32,000 nt of DNA from Candidatus Omnitrophota bacterium (GTDB lineage Bacteria; Omnitrophota; Gorgyraeia; Zapsychrales; JANLHA01), in NCBI GenBank assembly GCA_963662715.1, contig OY759724.1, positions 2,550,001 to 2,582,000 on the forward strand, in the 5' to 3' direction. The position numbers and the translations under genes were made by a program. Position 1 is the stretch's first letter. Every line of letters begins with the position of its first letter. Of this stretch, positions 1,422 to 29,770 are shown piece after piece. A model generated the notes under the pieces. That model was not told the DNA's origin, ran no database searches, and worked only from the letters and a program-made list of their open reading frames with translations.

Positions 1422-1910
1422 ATGAAGGTATCCAGATTGACGGCAGCAATCATGGTATTGCTGCTTACCTGCGGTGCGGGGGTTGCCCAGAGTAAAGCCC
1501 CGGAAAGTGAAAAAAAGGATCAGGTTTATGCCGAAGTTGTGGTTCAAGGCGTCAACCTGGGAGACTTTCTGCTTGTCCAGATGCCTTCCGCGGAAACGGA
1601 AATCATCGAATATCAGGACGGAGACGATTCACTCTTAAGAAAAAGGCCGGGACGGACCCGTTACAGTAATCTTATCATCAAAAGATCTATTTCCGATGAT
1701 AACAGAATCATAGAGTGGTATGATGGTGTCAAGGCCGGTATGGTAGAGAGAAGAACAATCACTCTTATTGTAAAAGATGCTCGCGGTCAGGTTGTCGATA
1801 CACATACCCTGCTGAATGCTTGGCCGGCAGCATGGCAGGGCGGGGTTTTTGAAACAGCTGAATTCGTTCTTGAAGATATGGAGAGAGTTGTAGAAGAAGA
1901 GGAAGAATAG
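1422..1910 (+). CDS. Phage tail tube-like protein (T4 gp19 / TIGR02241 'conserved phage tail region' family) with an N-terminal signal peptide
   Basis: RBS AAAGGAGAA lies upstream of the ATG. The N-terminus MKVSRLTAAIMVLLLTCGAGVAQS is signal-like. The core EIIEYQDGDD..KRPGRTRYSNLIIKRSISDD..IIEWYDGVKAGMVERRTITLIVKDARGQVV..LLNAWPAAWQG follows the tube-family pattern E.IEY..G....K.PG..KY.N..LKR....D...W.....G...RR...I.L.D..G....L.NAWP..W.G. The C-terminus is acidic (EEEEE). Confidence 0.75.
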   Translation: MKVSRLTAAIMVLLLTCGAGVAQSKAPESEKKDQVYAEVVVQGVNLGDFLLVQMPSAETEIIEYQDGDDSLLRKRPGRTRYSNLIIKRSISDDNRIIEWYDGVKAGMVERRTITLIVKDARGQVVDTHTLLNAWPAAWQGGVFETAEFVLEDMERVVEEEEE

Positions 1911-8967: not shown

Positions 8968-11900
8968 ATGAAAATGTTAAGAAGAAAATATGTGTTATGG
9001 CTCTGGACCTTTTTCGTCTTAGCCGGGGTTTGTTCCTCCGTTCATGGCGGGAACAAAAGACAGCAGACCTTGGCGGTCCTGGGGATCACTGCGGAACCTG
9101 ATATCCATCAGTCTGATAATCTGGTGTCTCTCCTTGAGGCCGGGTTGAGCGGGACGGATGATTTGACCCTTGTGGAAAGGCGCGAGATTGATCTTGTGAT
9201 TAAGGAACTGCAGCTTTCCATGGGGGATTTCTTAAGATCGGACCAGAAAATGCAGGCCGGCAGAATGCTTGGGGCTGATCTGATCGGGTATGGATTCCTG
9301 ACCCGGCAGAAAACCAGAATCCGTGTCAGGTTTCGTATCGTAGAGGTGGAGACCGGGCGTGTTGTCGGAAGTTTTCTGCTGGCGGAAAAAGATCCCGAAA
9401 CAATGTCTCATAAACTTTTAAGCGGTATGATAAAGTCCATAAAGACCGGCCCGGTTAAAAATCTCCCCACTTTTACGATAGCCTCTTTTATGAATGACAG
9501 TAATTACGACAGGTTTGATGATTTTGAAAAAATCCTGTTTGACAAAGCCTTTGACTTTGTCGCCGGAACAGGAAATTTTGTATTGCTGGAGAGAGAATCA
9601 ACGGGGTATTTGCTGGATGAAATTGATATGTTTAAGTCCGGTATCGTCGCTGAAGACCACGGGGCCAGGCCGGGCCGGGCTTTAAAAGCCGATTATGTGC
9701 TTAAAGGTTCTTTTGCCGAAGACCAAAGCACTCGGCAAAACGGACAATGGCTTATGAATGTTACGGTTGAATTGTGGGACTGCCGACACAGAAGAAGAGT
9801 CTGGTCTGAAATTTTTCAGTCGCCCTCTGATAGGCTCGAGCAGGAATTCACGGCCTTTTTAGAAAAAAACATGTCCCGTGTCCCGCGCGCAATATCCTTC
9901 CCTTTTAACCTGCAGCAAAAAGCTGAAAGCAGGGAATATTTAAGGAAAGGCCTGACCAATCTGTATGTCGGATCGCGGTTGCAGCAGGGGGGCATGTATG
10001 ATGCTTTGAATATAGAGGATTATTTGATGAAAAGTCATTTTTCCGGAGTGAAAATGGATGTCCTGGACCGGGATGATCCCCGGGCCTACAGACGCGCCCG
10101 GGCCGGGATTAACGACCTTGAGAATGCGCTCTTTTTGGATCCGGACAATACCGTTGCAAAACTCTACCTTGGAATGGCTTTGTGTGACTTGTACCGCGGA
10201 GATTTAAATCATAAAAGTATAGGGGTTCATGGACGACGGAGGCGTATTCTGACGATGTTGCGGGGTGCGGAGATGATCGGAAATGTCTTTCCCGCGGATA
10301 AGAAGACTTTTTCTACGGCTCTTTTTGAAGCTGTTTCCATTCTTGATTTCAGCCGGCCTCATTCCAATCCCGAGATCACCGCAGAGTATGAGGATGCGCT
10401 CTATCGACTGGTCAGGCTGGCCTTTGATAATCTCGAGGCGTTTTCCGGGGAAGCGCAAAGATTATTGAAAGACCGTTATGAAATCATTCTGACAAGGGGA
10501 TCACAGCAAGAGCTCATACATTTTACCCGTAAACGCCTCGCAGATATCCATAAAGACAAAGCGTTCGCCCGCCGTCATCCGGAAACGGCTTTTTATGTTT
10601 TTCAGAAGATCGCCGCCATGTGGAGAGAGGAATACCGCATGGACCCGGCCTGCGAAGTCGCCGGATTCTTTGAGGAGCAGTATGAGTCCGAGAATCCGGT
10701 CTATGCCCAGCTTGCGTATTTCTGGACCGCAAAATCATATCAGCGCATGAAAGATTATACGAAGGCGCGTGATTTTTACCGGAAAGCCCAGGACATATTT
10801 TATGCCCGTTTTGCCCAAGAGCCGTTAGAGACTTTTGAGAGTTCTTCGTGGGGAGTTTTGGAGGAGAGTTTTTTTCAGGAAGCCTACATGCACCTTGAAA
10901 ACAAAGAATATCAGAAGGCTATCGATGTCCTGGCCCCGTTTATCGAGGGGTGTTTTGAAAGGAATAGATATCAGGTTTTTGCTTATGATAATGCTTTAAA
11001 GCTGCTGGGCAGGGCTTATGAAGAGGAGGGGCTGATCGCCCAAGCCATTGAGTATTATCAGAAGGTCCTCGATGCCGAATATCCGAAAAATGTCTATGTT
11101 GATAAAGCGGCCATATCCTCAAGAATCAATAAACTGAAATTTGCCAGGGGGGACAAGACGGAAAATGCCGGCTTTGCCCTGTACAAGCTGGCTGATGTCA
11201 AAAACGCCAGGGAGATTGTCCGGCAAGGCTCCCAAATCTGGATTTTGAAAATGTCGGCGCTCTTCCCGGCAGCGGCCTATTCCAGCAGCAGTACGCATAG
11301 GGGAACTTACGAAGTATGGCAAGACGGGCCGGGGGGCTGGGTTAAAGCCGATGCCCCGTTACTGACAGATTCCCAAAAGATCAGCGTCCTGTTTTTGCAT
11401 GGGAATAATCTTTGGGTCGGGACTTACGGGGACGGTTTGTTCCGGCAGGACCTGGTGACGAAAAGAGTCGATTCCTTTACGACCGCATCGGGGTTGCTTT
11501 CAGATTATATCGTTTGTCTGGCAAGTTCGGCTCAAGAGCTTTTCATCGGCCTTTCGTCAAACAAAATGAACAGTGATCGGGGAGGCGTGTTGCGGTATCA
11601 TTATGGGAAAAGAATATTCAGTCCTTTCCCGGGGTTGAATTCCCGGGGGGTAAGGACATCCATGCCCATGGCCCTGCATTATGATGAGAAGCGGGATGCT
11701 CTTTGGGTCGGCTATCCCCGCTGGGAAAAGGCGATCCTGCACAGATATTCCCTGGCGAAAAAGCAATGGGACGCCTTTATGAGTAAGGCTTACGGGAAGT
11801 TTATCTTTCAGATATTGCCTTATCATGACGATTTATTATTCGGCATGGGCGATGAACTGGCAAGATATAATCTGCCGGAGGATGGCTGGGCCGATATCCG

Positions 11901-12168
11901 GGGGGGGAGAATCGACGGGTTTAAGAAATATAATATTTTTGAGACCCAGACCTCGCTTTTTTATGAAGTTTATGAGAATGTCCTTTTGACCGTAGCCGGG
12001 GGAAAAGGATCTCAGTTGCAAATATACAACCTTGAAACAGGAGAAATGAGGACAATGGATATTCTCTTCGGGAGGCAGGACACGCACATTACGGCCATTC
12101 AGACTGTGGGACAGGAACTGCTGATCGGTACGGATATGGCGGTCTACAAATTAACGATAAGTGAGTGA
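8968..12168 (+). CDS. 1066-aa secreted multidomain protein: two CsgG/LpoB/FlgO-like modules, a TPR-like helical region and a C-terminal beta-propeller-like repeat region
   Basis: The signal peptide is MKMLRRKYVLWLWTFFVLAGVCSSVHG. Two modules follow the pattern LAVLG...LVERREIDLVIKELQLS...GADL..G....RIVEVETGRVV (about 9070-9370 and about 9475-9830). TPR-like helices include YTKARDFYRKAQ, YQKAIDVLAP and AQAIEYYQKVLD. Reg_prop-like repeats include LWVGTYGDGLFRQD and ALWVGYP. No SD precedes the start. Confidence 0.7.
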   Translation: MKMLRRKYVLWLWTFFVLAGVCSSVHGGNKRQQTLAVLGITAEPDIHQSDNLVSLLEAGLSGTDDLTLVERREIDLVIKELQLSMGDFLRSDQKMQAGRMLGADLIGYGFLTRQKTRIRVRFRIVEVETGRVVGSFLLAEKDPETMSHKLLSGMIKSIKTGPVKNLPTFTIASFMNDSNYDRFDDFEKILFDKAFDFVAGTGNFVLLERESTGYLLDEIDMFKSGIVAEDHGARPGRALKADYVLKGSFAEDQSTRQNGQWLMNVTVELWDCRHRRRVWSEIFQSPSDRLEQEFTAFLEKNMSRVPRAISFPFNLQQKAESREYLRKGLTNLYVGSRLQQGGMYDALNIEDYLMKSHFSGVKMDVLDRDDPRAYRRARAGINDLENALFLDPDNTVAKLYLGMALCDLYRGDLNHKSIGVHGRRRRILTMLRGAEMIGNVFPADKKTFSTALFEAVSILDFSRPHSNPEITAEYEDALYRLVRLAFDNLEAFSGEAQRLLKDRYEIILTRGSQQELIHFTRKRLADIHKDKAFARRHPETAFYVFQKIAAMWREEYRMDPACEVAGFFEEQYESENPVYAQLAYFWTAKSYQRMKDYTKARDFYRKAQDIFYARFAQEPLETFESSSWGVLEESFFQEAYMHLENKEYQKAIDVLAPFIEGCFERNRYQVFAYDNALKLLGRAYEEEGLIAQAIEYYQKVLDAEYPKNVYVDKAAISSRINKLKFARGDKTENAGFALYKLADVKNAREIVRQGSQIWILKMSALFPAAAYSSSSTHRGTYEVWQDGPGGWVKADAPLLTDSQKISVLFLHGNNLWVGTYGDGLFRQDLVTKRVDSFTTASGLLSDYIVCLASSAQELFIGLSSNKMNSDRGGVLRYHYGKRIFSPFPGLNSRGVRTSMPMALHYDEKRDALWVGYPRWEKAILHRYSLAKKQWDAFMSKAYGKFIFQILPYHDDLLFGMGDELARYNLPEDGWADIRGGRIDGFKKYNIFETQTSLFYEVYENVLLTVAGGKGSQLQIYNLETGEMRTMDILFGRQDTHITAIQTVGQELLIGTDMAVYKLTISE

Positions 12169-25383: not shown

Positions 25384-25411
25384 TTGATAGATATCATATC
25401 TATGCTATACT
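25384..25411 (+). promoter_or_regulatory. Candidate promoter with a palindrome in the spacer, upstream of the giant ORF
   Basis: TTGATA (25384-25389), 16-nt spacer, TGcTATACT (25403-25411). A perfect palindrome ATAGATAT-c-ATATCTAT lies at 25387-25403. Confidence 0.45.
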
Positions 25412-25489
25412 TAGAAAGTAGTAATCCTGTCTCCACCCTAAAAATTAATACCTATTTTCAGCTTGTTATATAGAGCAAAGGAGTGTGTT

Positions 25490-28400
25490 TTGTCTTTGGG
25501 AAGAATACTCTGTTCCAGAATTTTTAGTTATGTATTAACGATAATAATCACTTTCACCTTTGTTTTTTACCCTCTGACACCTTCCCGTTATGTTTTTGCC
25601 CGGGAAGCGGCCATCCTCGGTTTGCCTGTTCCAGGAACACAGCTCCGGACGTCTGAAAGCTATGAGCCGGCTCTTGTCAAAGGCATAACGATATATCCCG
25701 ACAAGCCTCTGCAATTTAATTTTATTGTTCATCCGGGGGATGACCGGTTGAAGGGTGAGGCCCTGCAGCAGGAATCTTTAAAGATGATTAAATATTTCCT
25801 GGCTACCCTGACTATCCCGAAAGACGAGATGTGGGTCAATTTGTCCCCTTATGAGAAGGACCGCATTATTCCTGAAAATCTCGGTATAACGGAAATAGGC
25901 CGGGACATGCTGGCGCAGGATTATCTTCTTAAGCAGTTAACCGCTTCCTTAATATATCCGGAAGAGTCCCTGGGCCGCCGTTTCTGGGACCGCGTCTATA
26001 ACAAAGTGTATAAGGAATTCGGATTAAAAGAGGTCCCGATCAACACCTTTAATAAAGTCTGGATCGTCCCGGATAAAGCCGTTGTTTACGAACATGACAA
26101 TACCGCGTTTGTCATTGACCAGCATTTGAAAGTCATGCTGGAGGAAGATTATCTTGCCTTGCAGGAAAGCCGGGGTTCGGATGTTTTCCGCAAAAAGAAG
26201 ATGGATGAAAAAGAGATTTCGGGCATCAACCACGTCTCCTCGGAAATTCTGCGCACCATTATTATCCCTGAGATAGAAAAGGAAGTTAACTCAGGCAGAA
26301 CGTTTGCCGACTTAAGGCAGATCTATAACGCCATGATTCTGGGTATATGGTACAAACAGACACTCAAGAATAGTTTGTTGGCGTCTGTTTATGCCGACCA
26401 AAATAAAATTGTCGGCGTGGATGTTGATGATAAGGAGATCAAAGAAAAGATTTACAGACTTTACATTGAAGCGTACGGGAAAGGGGTCTTCAATTATATC
26501 CGTGAAGATACTGATCCCCAGACGCAGGATGTCATCCCGAGAAAATATTTCTCCGGGGGACTGGTGGCCCCGGCCCAGGTTACGGTCAAGAACGATTTCG
26601 CTCAATTGAATACTGCCGAAAGGCGGAATGTCCGCACGATCGTCAGTTCCCCGATCCAGCATCAGGGGATTATTGTCAAAACTTTGGAGCTGAGCCGTCC
26701 GGATGCTGAGGCCCGGATTTTAGACATGCTGCGGCAGGCTCTGTTAAAAGATGAGGGGAGAACGTTCAGCGTTCTTCAGGACGTGGCCGATTTATTATCC
26801 CGGGACGACATGAGGACGATCCCTGATATTCGTGCGGCCCTGGAGCCCTTCAGGGGACGGTATTTTTATGACCTGGCCTACGGATATCAGAAAGACAGCC
26901 TTGTGCTGGAGCGGGGGGCGGAACTCTGGCTGGTCGTTGATGCGGCCAAGAGAGAAGGGGACCGGCTTTACCGGTACATCAAGGCCCGGGACAGTGTTAA
27001 GGAAGAAGGCGACAAAGATATCCGTGAGATCATGGATTTCCCGGAGAGTCACTGGCAGATCGTGCGGGTCCGCAAGGGCGACCTGGAACAGGACAAGCTT
27101 ATTGATCTGCAGTTGATCGAAGACCATGATTTCCGTGTTATTGACCTGGTGGAAGAAGGGCGGGATTTAAGAGAAGATGATATCGGGCAGGGTATCGAAG
27201 GAGCCAGAGACAGGATTATCGGGGAACTGGATTATCAGGATTATTTGCAGTCGTTTGTGTCGAGATTGCAGGGAAAAACGATAATGGACGAGAGCGGCCG
27301 GACCATCCCGTTATTTGTGAATGAAAAAATCCGGACCGGGGAAGATTTATTAACGGCTTTTGAACAGGCCCGTCCTTTTCTCGATCAGTTCGATGAGAGC
27401 GACCCTATGGAGGATGTGTATGCGCGTTTGCGGGATGTAGGCCTGGAACGCGGCTGGGGAGACACGCTGTCCGAAATGAAGACGAGGCTGGATTTGCTGC
27501 TGGAATCCGCCGGGGCTGCAGATTCCGTGAGCAGAAAAAGCCTTTTAATGGAACTGGATGACCTGACCCCCACAGCGTTATCAGCCGTCTTTGTGAGTAC
27601 CCATGGATGGTTTGTCCAGGAAAATGCTTTCGGGAAACCCGATACGGGCGGTCAGGTGAGTTTTGTGCGGGACGAAGCCAAAGCCATGGCTAAAGAGATC
27701 GCCGGTAAGATGGAAAGAGCCGGGATTCCCGGTAAAGCTGTCGCCCTGATATTCACGCGCCTGATTCCCAAAGCCGAGGACACGACCGCCGATCTTCCGG
27801 AGGAGTCGGTCTACGAGGATGACCGTCAGGTCGTTAAACTGGTCCGGGTGCCTTTTGAGGATCAGGAGCGGTCCGGGGAGGTCAGGGGCCGTCCGCAACC
27901 TAAAAATATTCTGGAAGTCATTCAGGCTTTTATCCGGCGGTTTGAAATATGGTCGTATATTACTCAGGAAGAATTTATTAATACGGCCGGAGCCAGGATA
28001 ACAGAGGTGATGAACAGGTACGGGCAGGAGGGGCCGGATATTATTATGGGGAATTATTCCGACGGGAACCTGCTGGCGGGCAAATTGTCGGACTATTATG
28101 GCGGGAACGTCCCGGTTGTCATGACAGCCCATGCCCTGGAATTGAGCAAATATTTTAAAAGCATGCTGGAAAACGGCCGCCTGATCGATAACTGGTTTGA
28201 GACGGAAGACGGCCGTTATTTGGCGGCCCAGGCTTTGATCGATGCCTGGGTGATGCGTAAGGCCGATATTATCGAGACGAGCACGTTGCTGGAAATACTC
28301 GGCCAGTATTCCTATTATGAATCATTTGAATTTGAAAATCTTTTCCGGGTGGATAACGGGATTAAACTTACGGACGGAAAGTTTGTCCTGAATGAACCCA

Positions 28401-29686
28401 GCGTTGACCAGCGGACAGTAACAAACCCGGACGGGCTGTTCTTCGCCTATGAAGGGCCTGATGATGTCCGCCGGCAGGAGTTTGCCGATGCCAATGCTCT
28501 CTGGCAGGCCAAGATTTTTGCTGCTCCTGATGGCAAAAATAAAGTCTACGACCGGTTCGCTGACTGGAAAGATTCATCCAAACCGGTTGTTTTCACGATG
28601 GCGCGTTTTGATTCCCGGAAAAATATTGCGGGCCTGGTTGAGGAGTTCGCTAAAGCGGGCCTTAAAGACAGGGCCAATCTGGTGATCGTCGGCGGCAACA
28701 CGGATTATATTATCGACGGAGACGGCAAGGTCGTCTTTAAAAGCCAGGACGGGTCTGACGACATGAACGCCGAGGAACTCGCTATCGCGGAAAAGATTCT
28801 TGCCTTAGTGGAGCAATACGGTTTAGACGGACACATCCGCTGGATTTCGGCCAGTACTATTGCCCGTGAATCGGCTGAATTGTACCGGGTTATGGAAGCC
28901 CATCCCCAGGGGGCGATTTTCGCCCAGCCGGCTATTTTTGAGGCTTTTGGTTTAACAATTCTGGAAGCTATGGTCACAAAACTTATGGTTGTGGCTACGG
29001 ATCAGGGAGGCCCGGCAGAGATCATCCGCCATCACCAGGACGGTTTTCTGGCCAATCCTGAAATCCCGGGAGAGTTCGGGGAACGGTTGGGGGAAGCTTT
29101 GGATGCCCTGGCCAACGCTGAACAGAAACAGGCGATTATCCATTCTGCCCTGGAACGGATCGCCAGTAAATACAGCTGGCGCAGGCGGGTGCAGAGAACC
29201 TTGCAGGCGACGAAATTGTTTTCCACGCTTAATGATGTTGACCGGAATCAGCGTCCGGACCACTGGCAGGCCCGGAAACAATCCCAGGAGAAGGTTTACC
29301 GGGATATCCTGGATATGATTGACAATCTGGTGTGGGTTCATAAACTGGACCTTATTCCGCCGGAAGCACAGCCGGAAATGGAAAACCTGATCGGTGAGCA
29401 ATTCAGAACGGGGGCGGAAGCCGTTTCAAGCCCGCTGGCTCAGGACGCCGAGACAGATGCCGGGTCTTATTACGGCGGTATCGATTTGAATTCAGATATG
29501 CTGGACCTGCAGATCAAACGTGACGGCCGGGGCGTGGCCCTGCCGCTTCCTCAGCAGCCGATTCAGAATATGACAATCCAGGGATTCATGCCGATCATCA
29601 TTGATGTTGTCCCGGTGAATGTTCCCTTGTTGTTAGGGACCTTGGAAAGCTCCTCTGATAATATGCCGTCCGATGACGAAACATAG
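25490..29686 (+). CDS. Giant chimeric protein: N-terminal hydrophobic segment, unrecognised ~400-aa module, full-length sucrose-synthase-like GT-B glycosyltransferase, and a C-terminal hydrophobic/acidic tail
   Basis: AAGGAG (25478-25483) lies 6 nt before TTG 25490 (the ORF is open from 25463). SuSy hallmarks occur in canonical order: GLERGWGDT (about 27440), FGKPDTGGQV (about 27638), GNYSDGNLLA (about 28047), TAHALELSKY, ADIIETSTLLEI, FTMARFDSRKNIAGLVE, IRWISA...AELYR and PAIFEAFGLTILEAM (about 28940). Confidence 0.8.
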   Translation: MSLGRILCSRIFSYVLTIIITFTFVFYPLTPSRYVFAREAAILGLPVPGTQLRTSESYEPALVKGITIYPDKPLQFNFIVHPGDDRLKGEALQQESLKMIKYFLATLTIPKDEMWVNLSPYEKDRIIPENLGITEIGRDMLAQDYLLKQLTASLIYPEESLGRRFWDRVYNKVYKEFGLKEVPINTFNKVWIVPDKAVVYEHDNTAFVIDQHLKVMLEEDYLALQESRGSDVFRKKKMDEKEISGINHVSSEILRTIIIPEIEKEVNSGRTFADLRQIYNAMILGIWYKQTLKNSLLASVYADQNKIVGVDVDDKEIKEKIYRLYIEAYGKGVFNYIREDTDPQTQDVIPRKYFSGGLVAPAQVTVKNDFAQLNTAERRNVRTIVSSPIQHQGIIVKTLELSRPDAEARILDMLRQALLKDEGRTFSVLQDVADLLSRDDMRTIPDIRAALEPFRGRYFYDLAYGYQKDSLVLERGAELWLVVDAAKREGDRLYRYIKARDSVKEEGDKDIREIMDFPESHWQIVRVRKGDLEQDKLIDLQLIEDHDFRVIDLVEEGRDLREDDIGQGIEGARDRIIGELDYQDYLQSFVSRLQGKTIMDESGRTIPLFVNEKIRTGEDLLTAFEQARPFLDQFDESDPMEDVYARLRDVGLERGWGDTLSEMKTRLDLLLESAGAADSVSRKSLLMELDDLTPTALSAVFVSTHGWFVQENAFGKPDTGGQVSFVRDEAKAMAKEIAGKMERAGIPGKAVALIFTRLIPKAEDTTADLPEESVYEDDRQVVKLVRVPFEDQERSGEVRGRPQPKNILEVIQAFIRRFEIWSYITQEEFINTAGARITEVMNRYGQEGPDIIMGNYSDGNLLAGKLSDYYGGNVPVVMTAHALELSKYFKSMLENGRLIDNWFETEDGRYLAAQALIDAWVMRKADIIETSTLLEILGQYSYYESFEFENLFRVDNGIKLTDGKFVLNEPSVDQRTVTNPDGLFFAYEGPDDVRRQEFADANALWQAKIFAAPDGKNKVYDRFADWKDSSKPVVFTMARFDSRKNIAGLVEEFAKAGLKDRANLVIVGGNTDYIIDGDGKVVFKSQDGSDDMNAEELAIAEKILALVEQYGLDGHIRWISASTIARESAELYRVMEAHPQGAIFAQPAIFEAFGLTILEAMVTKLMVVATDQGGPAEIIRHHQDGFLANPEIPGEFGERLGEALDALANAEQKQAIIHSALERIASKYSWRRRVQRTLQATKLFSTLNDVDRNQRPDHWQARKQSQEKVYRDILDMIDNLVWVHKLDLIPPEAQPEMENLIGEQFRTGAEAVSSPLAQDAETDAGSYYGGIDLNSDMLDLQIKRDGRGVALPLPQQPIQNMTIQGFMPIIIDVVPVNVPLLLGTLESSSDNMPSDDET

Positions 29687-29770
29687 TCTTTAGGTCTGCC
29701 CGAGAAATTGAGCATTCCTGTCGTGCTGGACGGGAATGCGGCATTTTTATGGCGGAGACAGGACATTTCA

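Follow-up and report, generated by a model that had tools for sequence, protein, structure and literature searches.

A divergent sucrose-synthase-type enzyme, very probably exported, in an apparently undescribed Omnitrophota family of cysteine-purged cassette proteins

Why would sucrose synthase (SuSy), otherwise a soluble, cytoplasmic enzyme of about 800 aa, be found in a protein of 1398 to 1407 aa that is probably not cytoplasmic and that carries a signal peptide, a 325-aa foreign N module, and a foreign C module? The question is raised by an open reading frame (ORF) at 25463-29686 on the + strand of a 32,000-nt stretch of Candidatus Omnitrophota DNA (GenBank assembly GCA_963662715.1, contig OY759724.1, positions 2,550,001 to 2,582,000), referred to here as the window. 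The first-pass annotation, made from the letters of the window, described the product as a membrane-anchored chimera in which a SuSy homolog is embedded between unrecognized modules and suggested an envelope-tethered machine that generates sugar nucleotides or glycosylates. Our reading, drawn from sequence and given a probability of roughly 0.6, is that the protein would be an exported, active SuSy-type enzyme of an undescribed cassette family, acting outside the cytoplasm of the producer.

We identified the SuSy-type GT-B core at 27284-29260 (+ strand; aa 608-1266 of the longest ORF, the numbering used throughout) with Pfam and NCBIfam models, which also gave the limits of its domains. Pfam SUS_EPBD (PF24862) matched aa 613-667, covering only the C-terminal half of the EPBD, with 38.7 bits against a cut-off of 27.7, GT-B_Sucrose_synth (PF00862) matched the GT-B N-domain at aa 702-984 (E 6e-45), and Glycos_transf_1 (PF00534) the C-domain at aa 1036-1214 (E 3e-20). 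The sucrose synthase model of NCBIfam, TIGR02470, aligned aa 608-1266 with model positions 164-761 of 784 (E 1e-115) and scored 387 bits, compared with 118-138 bits for the NCBIfam sucrose-phosphate synthase (SPS) models. All 6 SuSy motifs on which the first-pass annotation had relied were located, in the canonical order it gave: GLERGWGDT (aa 660-668), PDTGGQV (aa 726-732), GNYSDGNL (aa 863-870), AHALELSKY (aa 889-897), MARFDSRKN (aa 1046-1054), and EAFGLTILEAM (aa 1160-1170). The core could be aligned with Arabidopsis SUS1 (3S27, E 4e-79) and with the SuSy of Nitrosomonas europaea (4RBN, E 4e-74), and at the level of single residues both alignments retained the PDTGG loop, the catalytic His, the Arg/Lys pair, and the catalytic Glu, none of which is substituted. 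The protein thus shares with SuSy (GT4, EC 2.4.1.13; 3S27, 4RBN, TIGR02470) the GT-B core, part of the EPBD, and the catalytic motifs, co-linear over about 660 residues. A glycosylating role, suggested earlier, found no evidence in its favor over a SuSy-type reaction.

The core is nevertheless far from any characterized SuSy; it differs from SuSy in identity (31-36%), in score (387 against an equivalog cut-off of 810 bits), in cysteine content (0 against a median of 8), and in the absence of PF24861. When the core alone was searched, the best 120 matches, which came from algae, plants, and several bacterial phyla, were canonical SuSy proteins of about 800 aa and roughly equidistant from the query. 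The record of the protein itself and its 3 orthologs were not among them, although they must score highest (probably a quirk of word-index selection), and the absence of closer SuSy-cargo relatives from these matches is not to be over-read. The SuSy N-terminal domain, PF24861, was present in nearly all of the 120 closest canonical matches and was not detected in the query. In its place, at 26657-27283 (+ strand; aa 399-607, 209 aa), lies an extension of the size and position of that domain, with no detectable homology to PF24861; it is kept only in the SuSy-cargo orthologs P0002, P0003, and P0121, has no counterpart in other members of the family described below, and as an isolated region gave no meaningful Pfam or NCBIfam match at E<=10 and no PDB-sequence match. 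Of the likeness to SuSy regulatory N-domains proposed for the region upstream of GLERGWGDT, the C-terminal half of the EPBD was borne out and the N-terminal domain was not. Judged from its alignments, the core is a deep-branching, highly divergent SuSy-type lineage with its catalytic and nucleotide-sugar motifs intact. A further SuSy-like protein, P0269 (974 aa), is 36% identical over 78% of the core and has a hydrophobic, signal-like N-terminus (by eye), a single cysteine, and no N module, C module, or SSP motif; it may be an independent case of an exported SuSy-type enzyme.

The ORF itself is single and uninterrupted, encoding 1407 aa without a stop or frameshift between modules. A strong Shine-Dalgarno sequence, AAGGAG at 25478-25483, was read from the sequence 6 nt before an in-frame TTG at 25490-25492 (+ strand), and a public protein that is 100% identical, P0001, starts at the same TTG with 1398 aa, 9 residues fewer than the longest ORF, so the real start is probably TTG 25490, 9 codons downstream of 25463. 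Full-length orthologs were found at 68% and 57% identity with 99% coverage in independent ENA, Logan, and JGI assemblies. Since they have the same architecture, a mis-assembly at the module borders, which the first-pass annotation had wanted checked, is excluded, and the ORF is a single, real gene from an Omnitrophota genome.

What, then, are the parts on either side of the enzyme? The N module lies at 25601-26575 (+ strand; aa 47-371, ~325 aa), beginning with (L)GLPVPG and ending with PRKYFSGG, and the C module at 29474-29638 (+ strand; aa 1338-1392, ~55 aa; GGIDLNSDMLDLQIKRDGRGVALPLPQQPIQNMTIQGFMPIIIDVVPVNVPLLLG), beginning with an invariant GG and followed by a short acidic tail, TLESSSDNMPSDDET, that reaches the stop codon (29639-29686, + strand). 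The strings LQFNF and WVNLSP and the GGIDLN...PLLLG tail, which the first-pass annotation had singled out, are where it placed them. Its module of ~400 aa that it could not assign is indeed unassigned but consists of 2 pieces, the N module and the SuSy-ortholog-only region at aa 399-607. In a search with the whole protein, the only matches below the 3 orthologs shared ~25% of the query at ~500 bits, with 50-60% identity in the shared portion. These correspond to a family of thousands of proteins with different cargos, whose N-termini match the N module at 50-63% identity over residues ~40-360. Using phmmer against 1.84 billion cluster representatives, we obtained 7,922 clusters (50% identity) with the N module, 6,182 of them at E<=1e-30; in the 150 matches listed, the module always started within about the first 110 residues, mostly at 30-50, and protein lengths spanned 420-5312 aa. 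All named matches to the N module belonged to Candidatus Omnitrophota, as did 6 of 6 loci from a scan of genome collections for which a single N-module sequence was used and poorly conserved peptides were chosen. At least 4 paralogs are encoded on the 3.36-Mb source contig and at least 9 in one hydrothermal-vent metagenome-assembled genome; within the window a second family member was looked for and none was found. Family genes are often clustered, with 3 on one 43-kb contig (ORJL010437495.1; loci L022, L032, and L053) and second family ORFs within 10 kb in several other loci (L051, L081, and L023).

Of the 120 best N-module relatives, 117 had the C module in their final 200 residues, with the consensus GGI[DN]L..LDLQIKRDG..PLP..QP..I.GF.P.II...P...LLG near the C-terminus, to which the query conforms. 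No more than 9 short fragments came from a homolog search with the C module by itself, and a pattern scan of metagenome contigs was used in its place. In this reverse test, the C-module peptide pattern alone led to 277 confirmed loci, of which 79 were kept, and the N module was present at the N-terminus in 38 of the 44 ORFs whose 5' end lay inside the locus. Taken together, the 117 of 120 and the 38 of 44 make the N and C modules a near-obligate pair around a variable cargo. Pfam annotations precomputed for the 120 best relatives placed between the modules enzymes of sugar metabolism (PGI, PGK, GAPDH with FBA, PGM, UGPase, PPDK, hexokinase, PfkB kinase, and starch synthase) together with isocitrate lyase and malate synthase, radical SAM, REC, GGDEF, PP2C, metallophosphatase, HTH, DnaJ, GNAT, and HEAT domains. 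A new scan of 27 ORFs fished by their C module gave PGM (3 ORFs), PGK (2), REC (2), GH77, isocitrate lyase, malate synthase, GAPDH, FBPase, UGPase, aminotransferase V, HEAT, and PP2C. SuSy fits the sugar-nucleotide, alpha-glucan, and glycolysis theme of the family. With thousands of unrelated cargos between them, the N and C modules are best regarded as generic handles and not as SuSy accessories, and the idea of a SuSy-specific chimera or dedicated machine gives way, as the same modules bracket glycolytic, glycogen, and sugar-nucleotide enzymes and REC, GGDEF, and HEAT domains. The protein apparently belongs to a very large, undescribed Omnitrophota family of exported cassette proteins; the literature searched contained no description of the N module, the C module, or the family.

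The modules remained without known relatives in every comparison made, in agreement with the first-pass annotation. In isolation, neither the N module nor the C-terminal region had a meaningful Pfam or NCBIfam match at E<=10 or a PDB-sequence match, and the N-module alignment profile gave only noise against PDB sequences, in cargo columns. An AlphaFold2 model of the N module, built from a 50-sequence alignment, was a confident alpha/beta structure (pLDDT 80, pTM 0.78), for which Foldseek found no significant match in PDB or BFVD. The top Foldseek matches were alpha-pore-forming toxins of the ClyA family (NheA, MakA/MakE, and Cry6Aa), which like the model are helix-rich with a long beta-hairpin; the best had an E of 0.24, a probability of 0.04, and a TM-score of about 0.1. 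None of these matches is significant (E 0.24-5, probability <=0.05, TM-score about 0.1), sequence similarity to the toxins is lacking, and the hairpin of the model is charged and not hydrophobic. In a model of P0116, a short natural member of 805 aa, the cargo and the C module were of low confidence, the C module appearing as one low-confidence beta-hairpin that was not docked on the N module, which at that confidence speaks neither for nor against docking. Further, an RTX nonapeptide, an EF-hand or dockerin loop, a PEP-CTERM or sortase-type signal, and a beta-signal of the beta-barrel assembly machinery were each considered for the C module and rejected by eye, since the consensus does not fit them and the tail is acidic, not basic or aromatic. 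Family tails after the C module are variable (median 30 aa, mean net charge -2.8), and many end in ...LSAL, ...[SW]LN, or ...FWLE, a hint of an extra terminal motif that is absent from the short tail of the window protein.

The borders between modules and cargo carry motifs of their own. In 3 independent alignments an invariant Gly-Gly closes the N module and opens the C module, and in the window these border glycines are seen as SGG at 26552-26560 (aa 364-366) and GG at 29474-29479 (aa 1338-1339). Giant proteins of Omnitrophota are reported to contain C39 double-glycine peptidase domains. Cleavage at the Gly-Gly sites may occur, and we offer it as an idea only. Between modules and cargo, the query has the junctions SSPI at 26645-26656 (+ strand; aa 395-398, within VSSPI at aa 394-398) and SSPL at 29426-29437 (+ strand; aa 1322-1325, within VSSPL at aa 1321-1325), the latter 12 residues before the C module, so that the cargo is bracketed exactly. 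Among the 120 relatives, SSP[IVL] was observed 168 times against 7.1 expected from composition, a 24-fold enrichment, and about 45% of members had [AST]SSP[VIL] junctions. In the 65 motif-bearing proteins, the last SSP motif lay <=40 aa from the C module in 43 and the first <=60 aa from the end of the N module in 27, and in multi-domain members the motif flanks single enzyme domains, such as PGI in P0041 and PGK in P0078. At the nucleotide level the [AST]SSP[VIL] junction is also kept in some relatives (among them L045:1-10226, L017, L021, L044, and L011): the 11-mer TCCTCGCCGGT occurs 29 times on the gene strand of 857 kb of loci, with 0.2 expected, and never on the other strand, and of the 14 junction motifs in one related ORF, 9 have exactly GCCTCCTCGCCGGT as their coding sequence, in flanks that are unrelated. 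In the window gene and several other relatives, different codons specify this junction peptide.

Is the protein exported? Its leader (25463-25600, + strand; aa 1-46) has a basic n-region, the h-region IFSYVLTIIITFTFVFYPL, and a c-region ending in VFA|R, the hydrophobic segment and cleavage context that the first-pass annotation had noted. In 150 relatives, the n-region had a mean net charge of +3.6, the hydrophobic core was 15 aa long with a Kyte-Doolittle value of 2.3, and the c-region was proline-rich; 147 of them had an AxA-like site, usually followed by Q, no more than 14 aa ahead of the invariant LNLPxPG. Judged by these features, the leader is very probably a Sec-type signal peptide with which the enzyme leaves the cytoplasm, and the positive-inside rule would place most of the protein outside the cytoplasm, with or without cleavage of the leader. 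The hydrophobic stretch of the C module contains 3 invariant or near-invariant prolines and a central D or N and is followed by the variable acidic tail, features that make it unlike a stop-transfer helix with a cytoplasmic tail. Membrane anchoring, as originally proposed, is not supported by these features, the AxA-type site being kept across the family and the conserved prolines and acidic tail marking the C-terminal stretch. The paradox pointed out at the outset, a nucleotide-sugar enzyme facing a compartment in which its substrates are not expected, is however real, given a very probably exported and cysteine-free mature protein, and it extends to the whole family, whose modules carry many enzymes of cytoplasmic type.

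A second signature, which is the strongest new evidence, runs through the family. The mature query (~1360 aa, aa 47-1407) contains 0 cysteines, those of the ORF being confined to the leader, and in 217 family members (median length 1301 aa), cysteine made up 0.04% of 321,634 mature residues, with 140 members having none; the cargo alone had 0.03%. The 22 other genes of the window had 1.06% cysteine, and 90 family ORFs in metagenome loci had 0.06% compared with 1.12% in 270 neighboring ORFs on the same contigs, controls which argue against a low cysteine content of the whole Omnitrophota proteome. In the 120 canonical SuSy proteins the content was 0.89%, with a median of 8 per protein and a minimum of 3 among those of ~800 aa, the 974-aa P0269 with its 1 cysteine being the outlier. 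Cysteines that survive include the GAPDH active site SCASCTTN in P0036, the isocitrate lyase KKCGH in P0096 (the sole cysteine in about 2150 mature residues), and the radical-SAM CxxxCxxC in P0075. That the survivors are the catalytic ones indicates that the cargos are under selection to remain enzymes, and a purge across the family suggests that some step common to all members makes dispensable thiols costly. Sec export alone does not appear to be the explanation, as window ORFs with a solute-binding-protein match and a weak CsgG match, presumed from their family to be exported, keep their cysteines. Proteins that have to pass a further membrane in an unfolded state, such as autotransporter passengers and type I substrates, or that function in an oxidizing exterior typically contain few cysteines.

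From these observations we propose the following course of events for an exported, active enzyme. The leader would take the unfolded chain through Sec and be cut after VFA, and the N and C modules would act as cargo-independent handles for a later step common to all members, which may be anchoring or assembly in the envelope or a "coat," or passage across a further membrane. On that route free thiols or disulfides would be harmful, and dispensable cysteines would accordingly have been purged throughout the family. The cargo would then work outside the cytoplasm of the producer, in this case on NDP-glucose + fructose <-> sucrose + NDP (NDP, nucleoside diphosphate), beside sister proteins with glycolytic, alpha-glucan, and sugar-nucleotide enzymes. 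Several points weigh against this account. Nucleotide-sugars, ATP, NAD, and SAM are not expected in the periplasm or outside cells, yet the cargos need them, which makes extracytoplasmic activity biochemically awkward unless the cytoplasm of a prey supplies the cofactors. The substrate may not be sucrose, in view of the 387 bits obtained where the equivalog cut-off demands 810 and of the ~33% identity to any SuSy. Signal-peptide cleavage is judged from sequence statistics, the roles of the modules are deduced from their invariance, the fold of the N module is unmatched, and the C module is neither confidently folded nor docked. No dedicated transporter or partner gene was found beside the gene or beside its 68%-identical ortholog.

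The need for NDP-sugars, ATP, NAD, SAM, and phosphodonors points either to the use of metabolites of the prey at the cell surface or to delivery into the prey cytoplasm. The latter is a more specific version of the exported-enzyme explanation, in which the modules would carry the cargo across the outer membrane into the cytoplasm of a prey or host, where SuSy and its sisters would re-route sugar-nucleotide and glycolytic pools; we consider it less likely than not. It would accommodate the requirement of the cargos for cytoplasmic cofactors and partners (ATP, NAD, SAM with a reductant, phosphodonors, and DNA), and an Fe-S radical-SAM cargo exported unfolded through Sec could presumably be matured only by the machinery of another cell. 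The cysteine purge resembles that of substrates which cross the outer membrane unfolded, and the diversity of the family is very high, with its 7,922 clusters and several paralogs per genome. Members of the Omnitrophota have been reported as ultra-small, host-dependent or predatory epibionts (PMC10066038), and a cultured member is an epibiotic predator whose RNA was seen inside dead prey cells (PMC13153191; PMC10066038). The weak resemblance of the N module to ClyA-type pore formers would suit such delivery, but the Foldseek matches are not significant (E 0.24, TM-score about 0.1); moreover, no injection machinery is linked to the genes, and housekeeping-type enzymes would be odd effectors. 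In its fullest form, the idea is of an Omnitrophota-specific delivery system whose C module and N module, the latter of a novel fold, might export cysteine-purged, catalytically competent enzymes of glycolysis, glycogen, and sugar-nucleotide metabolism, this SuSy among them, into the prey cytoplasm or a sealed predator-prey junction, with the [AST]SSP[VIL] motifs as processing sites that release the single enzymes, and this too we regard as a speculative proposal with the odds against it. If it were true, much of the carbon and energy metabolism of the predator would run inside, or at the expense of, another cell.

Keeping the cargo at home would remove the cofactor paradox altogether. The leader would then be an uncleaved anchor, the cargo would lie in the cytoplasm of the producer, and the modules would scaffold glycolytic and glycogen enzymes into a metabolon on the inner membrane. 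The cargos are normal enzymes of the cytoplasm whose active sites are intact, and no stand-alone glycolytic genes that would represent separate cytoplasmic copies were seen in 857 kb of flanking DNA, a limited and uninformative sample in which one query was contaminated by the C module. However, the basic n-region (+3.6) before an h-region of 15-18 aa predicts an N-in orientation with the rest of the protein outside, the AxA-Q sites are conserved in 147 of 150 relatives, and the roughly 20-fold, family-specific purge of cysteine would be unexplained for cytoplasmic proteins, all of which leaves a cytoplasmic location improbable. Very improbable, in our judgment, is a cargo that no longer turns over substrate, with enzyme folds put to new use in ligand binding or as structural parts of the coat, for instance to capture sugars or nucleotides of the prey. 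The extreme divergence of the core (about 33% identity, below the equivalog cut-off), the loss of the canonical SuSy N-terminal domain, and the lack of extracellular cofactors would all agree with it, but every catalytic and NDP-binding motif of SuSy is conserved, and a purge that spares only catalytic cysteines is hard to explain without selection for catalysis. Finally, an artifact in which assembly or gene calling had fused a normal SuSy gene to unrelated neighbors, which the odd architecture and the uncultured source might bring to mind, is hardly credible in the face of the full-length architecture shared by the 68%- and 57%-identical orthologs of the independent ENA, Logan, and JGI assemblies, an N...C arrangement common to thousands of relatives, and an ORF free of stops and frameshifts.

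The surroundings of the gene add little to its interpretation. Upstream lie genes for MoaA, MoaC, MOSC, a PEMT/ICMT-like methyltransferase, and MatE, and downstream an ABC ATPase and an ABC-3 permease. Genes for SPS, sucrose-phosphate phosphatase, or fructokinase are absent among these neighbors, as the first-pass annotation had said. The adjacency of the ICMT-like and MATE genes, to which it had drawn attention as context, is incidental, since the 68%-identical ortholog sits in a completely different neighborhood, and a functional link with them was rejected. Of the promoter and strong terminator assigned to the gene, both sites are present, though as consensus matches only: a promoter-like site at 25384-25411 (+ strand; TTGATA, a 16-nt spacer, and TG-TATACT, with 10 of 12 positions matching and an extended -10 TG), and a terminator-like hairpin at 29712-29739 with an 11-bp stem containing 6 GC pairs, followed by a T-run (29712-29749 in all, + strand). 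Rfam and tRNA scans of the window were empty. Elsewhere in the window, a 162-aa ORF at 1422-1910 (+ strand) combines an N-terminus that by eye resembles a signal peptide with a T4 gp19-like tail-tube domain (PF06841, E 1e-19); the cassette gene is 23 kb away, and no other genes of a contractile injection system were visible in the window. A 1066-aa ORF at 8968-12168 (+ strand) has TPR repeats and a weak CsgG-like match (the curli secretion channel family), which may indicate an envelope or secretion component in this part of the window.

How does the family compare with known systems? The giant "multi-enzyme" or "Archaeovorin" proteins of Omnitrophota (West-Roberts et al. 2023, bioRxiv 10.1101/2023.11.21.568195; Nielsen & Lui 2026, bioRxiv 10.64898/2026.06.07.730766) are described with the same metabolic Pfams on predicted extracytoplasmic faces, with signal peptides, and with a suggested post-translational cleavage. 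The shared cargo comprises starch synthase, GT1, PGM, PPDK, aldolase, hexokinase, REC, radical SAM, and HEAT, and the giants measure 10,000-147,000 aa with many predicted transmembrane helices, whereas the query has 1.4 kaa, one cargo enzyme, one leader, and one proline-rich hydrophobic stretch; the passages of these preprints that were consulted mention neither end module, no SSP junctions, and no cysteine purge. A Sec leader, a variable cargo, and a conserved terminal module in many paralogs are also features of type IX secretion system (T9SS) cargo with its C-terminal domain (CTD), autotransporters, cellulosomal dockerin enzymes, and polymorphic toxins, and autotransporter passengers and type I substrates are similarly poor in cysteine. 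Unlike these secreted families, the cassette is conserved at both ends, and its cargos belong to central metabolism and signaling and are neither hydrolases nor adhesins nor toxins. At E<=10, the N and C regions searched in isolation had no match to the T9SS CTD (TIGR04183/PF18962), the autotransporter barrel (PF03797), or dockerin (PF00404). The cassette family is best seen as a well-defined variant within 2 known themes, the large Omnitrophota proteins with metabolic enzymes on their outer side and, more broadly, secreted families in which the cargo varies and the trafficking ends are conserved.

The N and C modules and the cysteine-purge signature provide simple sequence criteria with which the family (at least 7,900 clusters) can be retrieved from metagenomes, and the modules themselves are candidate targeting tags. 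A cysteine-free, probably secreted, deep-branching SuSy lineage is also a possible robust biocatalyst for nucleotide-sugar regeneration. If the cargos are truly exported, Omnitrophota would send out of the cell a toolbox of enzymes that textbooks place strictly inside it, and this would bear on how these ultra-small, uncultured, and apparently host-dependent bacteria feed and on the role of giant "multi-enzyme" proteins.

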